Assembly (NCBI RefSeq): GCF_024298765.1
Contig: NZ_CP101213.1
Source of the DNA: Escherichia coli
Lineage (GTDB): Bacteria > Pseudomonadota > Gammaproteobacteria > Enterobacterales > Enterobacteriaceae
DNA length: 62,297 bases
Strand: one strand, 5' to 3'
Position numbers: made by a program. Position 1 is the stretch's first letter, and every line of letters starts with the position of its first letter. This document shows, in pieces, positions 21,001 through 24,000 of this stretch.

Positions 21001-24000
21001 TGGTGATGGCATTGGGCTGGGCGATGGGCTGCTATAAGATGATTATTGGCGATCATTTTTTGAGCCATACGGTGGTGTCGATGATGCTTGCGTGGGCGAT
21101 GTCGGCAGGGCTTGCGTGGGTGTTTTTTAAGAAGGGTGAACAATTCAAGGAAAAAAAATCAACCCCAAACAGAAATAACAGCTACAAAAATGGACAGTAA
21201 TAATGCAATAAAAGTAATGTTGAGCCATATGTTGGACGAGTCTTTTAAGACTAATGAGGCTGTTAATGCCATTGTAATGAAACTAATGATAATAATGGCT
21301 GCAAATAAATATTGTACAATGTTTTTTATTGTACTTGGTTGCTCCCCAATTCTTTCTCTGTAATTTGCATCAACATTAGATATCCATTGAAGTAATAGAG
21401 CAATAAAACAGCCTACTCCGCAAACGGTGAATTGCACAGACGTCGGGTTTGAATCAAACAACGAGATCGCTAAGTTATATAAGTATACCGCGCCTGAAAT
21501 CACCCCGACAACTAAAATAGAGATGAGTATAATCCGAAGAACTAATGTATTGCTTTCCTTTAAGGAATATATTAAAGCCGCTTTTTCGTATTCTTTCATG
21601 ATTTAATCCAGTCTATAAGTATAAGAACCAACAAAACTGTCCAGGATTCATTTTCTGTGAGCATATGAAATCCCATCCAGAGTGATGATACTGGCAGAAA
21701 CACGCCCACAGCCGGAATTATTAGTCTGGCGGAGAATATCCTTATCAGGAGTATCAATAGTGATAAGAACAGAAAAAGAGTGATCATGTGGAAAAACATT
21801 CACATCACCTATAACACTATTAAGATAGCCTGCCAGATATCCATTTCAGACAGGCTATATACAGGGTTCAATTCATTCTATGAAAGGTGTATAGGGATTG
21901 CTGATGTTTGTGTCGATCAAAAATCTAATATTAATAGATGAGAACTAATATACATATTTCCAGACGGATGGGGGGATTTTATCGTAGAGTTTATTCATTG
22001 TGAGTTCTGCAAGCCTGTGATCGGCGGCGGCATTAAACGACTCAAGCTCAGAAGGAGGGAGGCTGTTTTGGTTTTTTTCAATAATCTTTTCAAGTGTGTC
22101 GAGTGTTGAGCAACGTCTTAACTGAAAGAGCCAGTCTTGTTTTGTTTTCATTGTACAATTCCTGAAGAACATCCTTGTCCTATAGTAGCTACAACGATGT
22201 TTGATTTCTACTGCTGGATTTATTTCTTACTTTTTTGTGTAAACTCAAATCCCAGTTTCCCGGTTGCTTTGTCAACCAGTTTTACTTTTGCTGAAAATTC
22301 TTTGTTTGTTTTTTGACTAATGAAACCTTTCAATTCACTTGTAACTCCTTTTGTTATTAACGTTTCAATTTGTTTATCGGTTAATGATTTGCCGCAGAAA
22401 TCTTTCCATATCTTAAATTCACATCCTGTACAGAAATAACCTTTTGGTCTGATAACAATCTGTTTACCACAGGAAGGACAAGGAGAGGGCAGGCGTTGTG
22501 ACTGACCAGACGGCGCGCTGGGGGCAACTTTTATTTCAGCACTGTTCGCATTACTAATCATCGGTATCAGATCATTGTACAGTTCGTCAACGAACTGTTC
22601 GATGGTCATTTCTCCGTTTTCAATGAGTGTCTGTTTTTCCGCCCATAATGCCGTCATATCTGGATTAACAGCTATATCCGGCAGAGCATCAATAAGCGCA
22701 TACCCGGTATCAGTCGGAATAAGTTTTCCTTTTTCCAGGGTGATATAGTTCCGTTTTTTCAGTGTTTCCAATATGGAAGCCCGCGTAGCTGGCGTACCAA
22801 TACCGCCATGTTCGTCTTTTTTATCCCGATCTTTATCCTTCAGTAACTTTTTAATCACTGGATCAGTGACAAAATCTGCGACACGAACAAGCGCGGCAAG
22901 TAAAGTGGCTTCGGTGAATAATGGCGGTGGCGTTGTTTTCTTCTCATTCACAACCACTTCTTTTGTCGTCACTGTTTCTCCTGTGCGAATTTTACAGAGC
23001 AGATCAAAAGCGGAATCATCATTTTCGGCTTCTGATTCCTCATCCCCGGTATTTTCCTCACCAAGAAACGCTTCAAATCCGCTGTCTGTTGTTTTCCTGG
23101 CACGGGCATAAAACGACTCATCACCACACTGAATGGCAACGGATACTTCCTGGTATGTTTTTTCAGGCATGAACTGAACAAGATAGTGTTGTGCGATTGC
23201 CAGGTAAACATTGCGCTCGTCACTGCTCAGCGCGTTTACATCCGGTACGTTAACGGTCGGGATTATCGCCGTATGCGCAGTCACTTTCGCACTGTTAAAC
23301 GCCTTGCTTTTACGTGTCGAATCAACGTCCAGTGGCTGATCGAATACTGACTTCAGGGCATCGAGAACCTGTGGTGCTTCGCTGAATTGTTCATCAGAAA
23401 GATATGAGCAATCTGAACGGTTGTAAGTAATTGCTTTGTATTTTTCACGTAGCTGCTGTGTGATATCCAGCGTTTGTTGTGCCGTCATTTTGAACTTCTT
23501 GTTCATGTACTGCTGAAGCCGGACCAGGTTAAAGGGCAATGGCGCAGCCGTTTTTTTATCGTCTGTTGCTGCTGCTTCAACTGTCGCTGGTTTTCCTGCA
23601 AGGGAAGCCGCTGTTCCATTCGCCCACGCCTTATCAAGTAATTTACGGTCTGTCAGTGGTGCGAACTCACCAGGTTTCCAGTTCGCCCTGATAACATCAA
23701 CGCCGCGTTGAAAATGCCCGGTCATGGTGTAGTAGAAACTGGATTTATGATTCTTGTTGGCACGGGTGCGATTTACTATCAGGCCAAGAATAGGCGTCTG
23801 AACACGCCCGACCGAAAGTGTCCCTTTATAGCCTTTAGCCCGTGCCGGGATCGTATAAGCACGCGTCATGGATAAACCGTATATCGCGTCGGCTACAGAA
23901 CGCGCCAGAGCCTTGAGATAGAGTCCTCTGAAGTCACGGTTATTTTTGGGATTTGCCAGTGCCTTTTTCACTGCCGGAAGGGTGTTGTCGTTGATCAGAA

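Follow-up and report, generated by a model that had tools for sequence, protein, structure and literature searches.

An hha gene on an IncI2 mcr-1 plasmid

The stretch of Escherichia coli DNA analyzed here (contig NZ_CP101213.1, hereafter the window) is 62,297 bp long and carries repA, mobC, a relaxase gene, mcr-1, pap2, hha, topB, a pcfJ-like gene, a shufflon, pil genes and a T4SS. A typical backbone of 60,960 bp that had gained an insertion sequence (IS) of 1,331 bp and a 5-bp target duplication would differ from this length by no more than 1 bp; from this fit and the gene content, the window appears to represent the whole of an IncI2 mcr-1 plasmid. Many IncI2 plasmids with mcr-1, ~60-63 kb in size and found in E. 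coli, Salmonella and related bacteria, matched the 3.7 kb around hha with 100% identity. The backbone is AT-rich, as the preliminary description of this DNA had stated, if moderately so (42.6% GC overall), and six islands with <32% GC over 300 bp were identified on the whole plasmid, near 7.0, 14.5, 22.3, 27.3, 42.0 and 56.4 kb. The features of the hha region are listed in the table.

Table. Annotated features of the hha-topB region (positions in the window)
Feature	Position	Strand	Basis
hha CDS, Hha/YmoA family	21945..22151	minus	Pfam, NCBIfam and PDB matches, AF2 model, RefSeq
hha 5' region: AGGA Shine-Dalgarno, weak promoter-like pair, non-conserved alternative ATG at 22172	22152..22224	minus	Sequence reading
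topB, 721-aa plasmid DNA topoisomerase III, directly preceding hha	22220..24385	minus	Pfam, NCBIfam
AT-rich lineage-specific patch, alternative TopB C-terminus	22225..22388	minus	Homology break versus other IncI2 lineages
hyp gene (191 aa), 3' fragment, head of the hyp-topB-hha string	24390..24753	minus	Intact homologue in NZ_CP080141.1
IS3-family insertion sequence (ISEc36/ISEc27-type), 1331 bp	24754..26084	minus	Alignment to uninterrupted plasmid
hyp gene (191 aa), 5' fragment	26085..26301	minus	tblastn and alignment to uninterrupted plasmid

The open reading frame that had been assigned to the Hha family proved to be real, running from an ATG at 22151 to a stop codon that is included at 21945 and encoding 68 aa (~8.06 kDa, pI 7.9, C-terminal end ...VWKYVY). 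Comparison of the 68-aa protein with curated profiles revealed matches to Pfam PF05321 HHA (E=4.6e-31, 107.3 bits; cut-off 25) and to NCBIfam NF008191 'hemolysin expression modulator Hha' (117.5 bits; cut-off 90), and the solved chains of YmoA (2k5s) and Hha (1jw2, 4icg) matched it with E ~1e-26. These matches are far above chance. The identity to E. coli Hha was 68% across 65 residues, and the PDB-chain match agrees independently with this figure. An AF2 model built from a 14-sequence alignment (pLDDT 84) had helices at residues 4-13, 17-28 and 33-52, the small (~8 kDa) single-domain all-helical fold of Hha/YmoA proteins, and its sole significant PDB match was 4icg_D, Hha in the Hha/H-NS(1-46) complex (E=4e-5, TM 0.71). 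Identity as YdgT/Cnu was rejected, with a score of 39.7 bits for the NCBIfam equivalog NF007703 (cut-off 101) and 42% identity to Cnu. The assignment to Hha/YmoA was borne out by profile scores above the curated cut-offs, by the fold, by conservation of the residues that contact H-NS and by hosts that are all enterobacteria, and we regard the identity of the protein as a member of the Hha family as virtually certain. RefSeq annotates hha (WP_000850854.1) at 21945-22151 on the minus strand of the near-identical plasmid NZ_CP080141.1; the gene identity is already known from public annotation, the mechanism of the family is well established and the plasmid family is heavily sequenced.

We also examined the distribution of the gene. 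A search of PLSDB revealed hha at ≥95% nucleotide identity in 522 plasmid records and IncI2 repA at ≥90% in 527, the two sets being counted separately. As judged from these records, hha is probably a core IncI2 backbone gene, present in essentially all IncI2 plasmids. Hha-like proteins are restricted to Enterobacteriaceae (PMC2686267), and the hosts of all 522 hha records were likewise enterobacteria (522/522; Escherichia, Salmonella, Shigella, Klebsiella, Citrobacter, Cronobacter and Kluyvera). More widely, Hha homologues were found on at least 5000 PLSDB plasmids, usually in other gene neighbourhoods.

The topB junction and the region 5' of hha

The location of hha upstream of topB, as previously described, holds only in plus-strand coordinates; both genes lie on the minus strand, and hha is the downstream gene, 68 bp beyond the stop codon of topB. 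The topB product matched Pfam Topoisom_bac (E=4.3e-97) as well as Toprim and Toprim_Crpt, and scored above the cut-offs of NCBIfam NF005829 and TIGR01056. The hyp gene at the head of the string belongs to no Pfam or NCBIfam family and is unbroken in NZ_CP080141.1 (WP_001303470.1). In the window it is split by the IS, which is flanked by the 5-bp target duplication and points towards topB-hha; the transposase domains are rve and HTH_Tnp_1, and copies with 99.9% identity bear an ISEc36-family annotation. A tblastn search of the window with the IncX4 homologue of hyp gave a match at 26301-26086 with 96% identity.

Homology to other IncI2 lineages stops at 22224/22389, leaving between these positions a 164-bp patch that lies inside one of the low-GC islands (22140-22440; <32% GC over 300 bp). 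The patch was present in 386 plasmid records at ≥99% identity and was ~75% identical to topB 3' ends on plasmids of roughly 34-78 kb. It is because of this patch that hha stands directly behind topB. Three other IncI2 plasmids, taken to represent roughly 135 patch-less records, encode an IncX4-like TopB C-terminus and have ~930 bp-1 kb with two small ORFs (74 and 112 aa) before hha. The products of these two ORFs are hydrophobic and had no family match, and neither was recognisable as an H-NS-like or TomB-like partner. The close spacing of topB and hha is thus peculiar to the lineage of the present plasmid, with the distance between the two genes remaining within ~1 kb in all IncI2 lineages examined.

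Two start codons were considered for hha. The longest mechanical ORF begins at an ATG at 22172 and would encode 75 aa; this start was rejected, since the N-terminal extension is absent from every homologue and the IncX4 hha start overlaps topB. The 68-aa start at 22151 is favoured because the homologues in our alignment all begin M(A)KTKQ(D/E)WL and because a Shine-Dalgarno AGGA (22163-22160) is located 8 nt 5' of this ATG. Reading by eye identified a promoter-like pair 5' of hha, TAGAAA (22210-22205) and TACTAT (22187-22182) separated by 17 nt, with an 8/12 match; a consensus promoter scan at a threshold of 9/12 detected none on the minus strand within the topB-hha spacer. No terminator-like site was found by scanning the minus strand before or after hha, including the topB-hha spacer, and a hairpin 3' of hha has no U-run and a folding z-score of only -1.9. 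Given the lack of a terminator-like site between the genes, read-through from topB into hha is possible. The 73 bp before hha (22152-22224) are ~98% conserved in IncI2 lineages with a different preceding gene, and this conservation despite the changed upstream gene suggests that hha carries its own 5' control region. Expression of hha is therefore probably driven by read-through of the hyp-topB transcript, by a weak promoter within these 73 bp, or by both; read-through and an own promoter are equally possible.

Relatives and functional residues of the plasmid Hha

Chromosomal Hha of E. coli and Salmonella (1jw2, 2mw2, 4icg) and YmoA of Yersinia (2k5s) share family and fold with the plasmid protein, with whole-protein identities of 66-68%. 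The plasmid Hha retains the equivalents of D48, E25, R16, R17, C18 and R50 of chromosomal Hha; it is four residues shorter at the N-terminus, and has Gln in place of R14 and K32. The genes also differ in their setting, with tomB lying upstream of chromosomal hha and the plasmid gene following topB. The closest relative outside IncI2 is an island-borne E. coli chromosomal Hha paralogue (82% identity, 68 aa); its gene has a CaiF/GrlA-family regulator and a gene for a primase-helicase as neighbours, and topB is missing from the island. RmoA-type Hha proteins of IncI1/K and IncF plasmids are 69-74% identical and have in common the motif WL(F/Y)QLRRC, with Gln at the R14 position; their genes follow excA on IncI1/K plasmids and finO on IncF plasmids, whereas that of IncI2 is next to topB.

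The IncX4 homologue (WP_000850859.1, e.g. on p137-mcr) is similar in both protein and setting. IncX4 and IncI2, both major mcr-1 vectors, carry the string hyp (190/191 aa)-topB-hha on one strand, and in both the Hha protein has 68 aa and begins MKTKQ(D/E)WLFQLR. In IncX4, there is a 4-nt overlap between hha and the topB stop codon, and the next gene, 17 nt further on, belongs to the H-NS family; in IncI2, topB and hha are 68 bp apart and hns is absent. Amino acid identity between the two groups was 94% for hyp, 86% for TopB and 68% for Hha, and dS was 0.06 for hyp, 0.82 for topB and saturated for hha. Because divergence is so uneven along the string, hyp-topB-hha resembles a recombinational mosaic, and the comparison suggests that recombination, rather than joint inheritance, brought its parts together. 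A comparison of plasmid hha with the IncX4 homologue gave pN 0.20 and pS 0.75 (saturated), values indicative of purifying selection on hha.

We also compared the residues of known function. Hha requires D48 to bind H-NS, and E25 is important as well (PMC4519777); the aligned residues of the plasmid protein, D44 and E21, were invariant in a 14-member alignment, as was R12, and position 13 was R or K. The basic face of Hha is directed away from H-NS, and an R14A/R17A mutant binds H-NS normally but has lost silencing and DNA condensation (PMC4231757). Of these two arginines, R17 is kept in the plasmid protein as R13 and R14 is replaced by Gln (Q10). The equivalents of R16, R26 (as Lys), K30 and R50 are also kept and K32 is Gln, giving a K+R total of 10 compared with 13 in E. 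coli Hha. The substitution of Gln for R14 was common to 10 of 11 aligned Hha-like sequences from plasmids, islands and contigs; as judged from this alignment, it is most readily read as a trait of the clade rather than a lesion.

Proposed co-silencing with host H-NS and alternative readings

The preliminary description proposed that plasmid Hha cooperates with H-NS in silencing acquired DNA and can modulate transfer. Both general claims are backed by the literature, in each case for other systems. Complexes of H-NS with Hha keep horizontally acquired DNA tightly silenced (PMC2686267); Hha itself lacks a DNA-binding domain and binds the N-terminal domain of H-NS (PMC4519777). Hha favours bridged filaments that block RNA polymerase, and host Hha strengthens silencing of the R6K transfer genes by Sfx (PMC11796372; bioRxiv 10.64898/2026.02.23.707533), so that R6K, together with R27, provides precedents for an effect on transfer. 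R27 (IncHI1) is, like IncI2, a conjugative enterobacterial resistance plasmid with an Hha of its own, and its Hha and H-NS are reported, as cited in PMC11796372 and PMC7074111, to repress conjugation in a temperature-dependent manner. In contrast to IncI2, R27 supplies its own H-NS variant, and a role of the IncI2 Hha in transfer is a prediction.

To identify silencing partners, the window was searched by tblastn using H-NS, StpA and TomB sequences and an IncX4 H-NS sequence taken from a database record. No homologue of H-NS or StpA was found in the 62-kb window (best E=1.2 with E. coli H-NS, StpA and IncX4 H-NS), and none of TomB (best E=0.32). The plasmid does not encode an H-NS/Hha pair of the R27 or IncX4 type, there being no H-NS gene on it. 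As the plasmid lacks its own H-NS, the partner of its Hha must be host H-NS or StpA.

Our preferred reading is that the plasmid Hha acts with host H-NS/StpA to reinforce the silencing of AT-rich plasmid operons, which we consider likely; we infer co-silencing by the IncI2 protein from homology, and its plasmid targets are predicted from base composition. The plasmid would supply only the adaptor, which has no DNA-binding domain and would rely on the silencer of the host. It would dock on the N-terminal dimerisation domain of host H-NS or StpA, with D44 and E21 set against R12 of H-NS, and join mixed filaments in which its basic face (R12, R13, K22, K26 and R46) would promote DNA-DNA bridging. 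Such bridging would silence AT-rich plasmid DNA more tightly, the most plausible targets being the operons for transfer and pili along with other costly genes, with the predicted net effect of a lower fitness cost and a conditional (e.g. temperature- or osmolarity-dependent) repression of conjugation. The hha copy would also enlarge the Hha pool of the cell upon arrival of an AT-rich plasmid.

Other readings give weight to the neighbours of hha. Hha and TopB could form one DNA-topology module, in which bridging by H-NS/Hha traps topological stress on the plasmid and TopB, produced from the same string, resolves it during replication or transfer, the role of Hha being mainly topological and less transcriptional; we consider this unlikely. 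The string that IncI2 shares with IncX4, where hns comes after hha, agrees with such a module, as does the presence of hha within ~1 kb of topB in every IncI2 lineage that we compared. IncX plasmids generally have an hns homologue directly after topB, and relief by TopB of topological stress induced by Hha/Sfx has been suggested for this group (PMC11796372). However, linkage alone is no proof of coupling: most plasmid hha genes are away from topB, as in IncI1/K and IncF, the island copy that is the nearest non-IncI2 relative has no topB, and the uneven divergence of hyp, topB and hha points to recombinational assembly. It is likewise improbable, in our estimate, that an H-NS-pathway gene directly behind plasmid topB marks a functional unit, the gene being hns in most IncX, hha plus hns in IncX4 and hha alone in IncI2, in which bridging of host H-NS filaments by Hha and relief of the ensuing topological stress by TopB are co-expressed and co-selected. 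If this were true, the IncI2 version would provide only the adaptor and the host the silencer, and Gln at the R14 position may tune bridging strength. Chromosomal hha is in an operon with tomB, and the pair has been described as a toxin-antitoxin system. The plasmid Hha could by analogy be the toxin of an Hha-TomB-type pair that aids plasmid stability, a suggestion we regard as barely credible and effectively excluded because tomB is absent from the window; the gene upstream of hha is topB, and no YbaJ/TomB domain occurs in the small ORFs nearby.

The altered basic face raises the opposite prospect, namely that an Hha without R14 acts as a decoy that binds host H-NS, fails to bridge, dilutes the filaments and so raises plasmid expression. 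The Gln residues at the R14 and K32 positions, the lower K+R total and the normal H-NS binding of the non-silencing R14A/R17A mutant would fit such an anti-silencer. We nevertheless regard it as very unlikely, since that mutant missed both R14 and R17 (PMC4231757), whereas the plasmid protein keeps R17 and the equivalents of R16, R26 (as Lys), K30 and R50; moreover, the same Gln recurs in 10 of the 11 aligned sequences from plasmids, islands and contigs, and the plasmid Hha of R27 is reported, in work cited in PMC11796372, to act in repression and not activation.

We found no experiment on IncI2 Hha function in the literature, and the regulator deletions made in the IncI2 plasmid pHNSHP45 concerned CopG, CaiF/GrlA and PcnR, with hha not among them (PMC8053102). 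The plasmid gene may be redundant, because the host already has Hha and Cnu/YdgT, and the phenotype of its deletion may be small. IncI2 plasmids are a principal vehicle of the colistin-resistance gene mcr-1, and the regulation of their cost and transfer is only partly understood, with one worked-out mechanism in copy-number control by PcnR (PMC8053102). Recruitment of host H-NS by an Hha of the backbone could plausibly add a second regulatory layer in IncI2 and, if true, would extend established Hha biology to another plasmid group rather than represent something new.

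Organization of the hyp-topB-hha string

The gene heading the hyp-topB-hha string, which encodes a 191-aa hypothetical protein, was interrupted by an IS3-family element accompanied by a 5-bp target duplication and oriented towards topB-hha. The left junction of the element (24753/24754) was crossed by none of the 25 plasmid matches listed. Through polarity or an outward promoter, the insertion could alter expression of topB and hha. The string also carried a lineage-specific replacement of the 3' end of topB, which shared approximately 75% identity with the same end of topB in plasmids roughly 34-78 kb in size. 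In contrast, other IncI2 lineages possess an IncX4-like TopB C-terminus, followed by approximately 930 bp containing two small hydrophobic ORFs before hha.

Features of the window, including the hyp-topB-hha string (window coordinates unless stated)
Feature	Position	Strand	Description
mcr-1.1-pap2 cassette	18730-21200		Between relaxase gene (end 18509) and backbone
67-aa hydrophobic ORF	21596-21799	minus	Unannotated; downstream of hha
Inverted repeat	21825-21858		10-12 bp (ATAGCCTG...CAGGCTAT); ~90-120 nt downstream of hha stop
topB replacement	22225-22388		Last ~55 codons, AT-rich; inside AT-rich island 22140-22440
191-aa hypothetical gene	24390-24753 + 26085-26301		Upstream of topB; counterpart at 3274-3846 in IncX4 locus L002
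IS3-family element	24754-26084	minus (two transposase ORFs)	1331 bp; 99.9% identity to copies annotated ISEc36 family
CaiF/GrlA-family regulator gene	60714-61220	minus	

Region downstream of hha and the mcr-1.1-pap2 cassette

Analysis of the region 3' of hha identified an inverted repeat that was not followed by a U-run on the minus strand, and thus does not represent a canonical intrinsic terminator; the whole 171-nt region containing it gave a folding z-score of only -1.9. The 67-aa ORF is a deletion derivative, lacking approximately 185 bp, of a 124-aa hydrophobic ORF found in other IncI2 plasmids (2981-3355 in plasmid locus L014), and overlaps by 4 nt the start of a gene encoding a 146-aa hypothetical membrane protein (21159-21599). 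The mcr-1.1-pap2 cassette was flanked by a gap of approximately 220 bp upstream and none downstream. As these gaps are too short to hold a copy of ISApl1, the cassette is in its 'stabilised' form.

Relationships to IncX4 plasmids and a chromosomal island

The 191-aa protein, which matched no family in Pfam or NCBIfam, was much closer between IncI2 and IncX4 than either topB or hha. Its 94% identity and dS of 0.06 imply a recent exchange of the gene between these two mcr-1 plasmid families. The CaiF/GrlA-family regulator shared 37% identity with a GrlA-like gene (L007, 6650-7099) of an E. coli chromosomal island, where this gene adjoins the closest non-IncI2 relative of Hha. Deletion of the CaiF/GrlA gene from the IncI2 plasmid pHNSHP45 had little effect on fitness (PMC8053102). 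Hha and a GrlA-type regulator occur together on both the plasmid and the chromosomal island, and may constitute a silencer/counter-silencer pairing.
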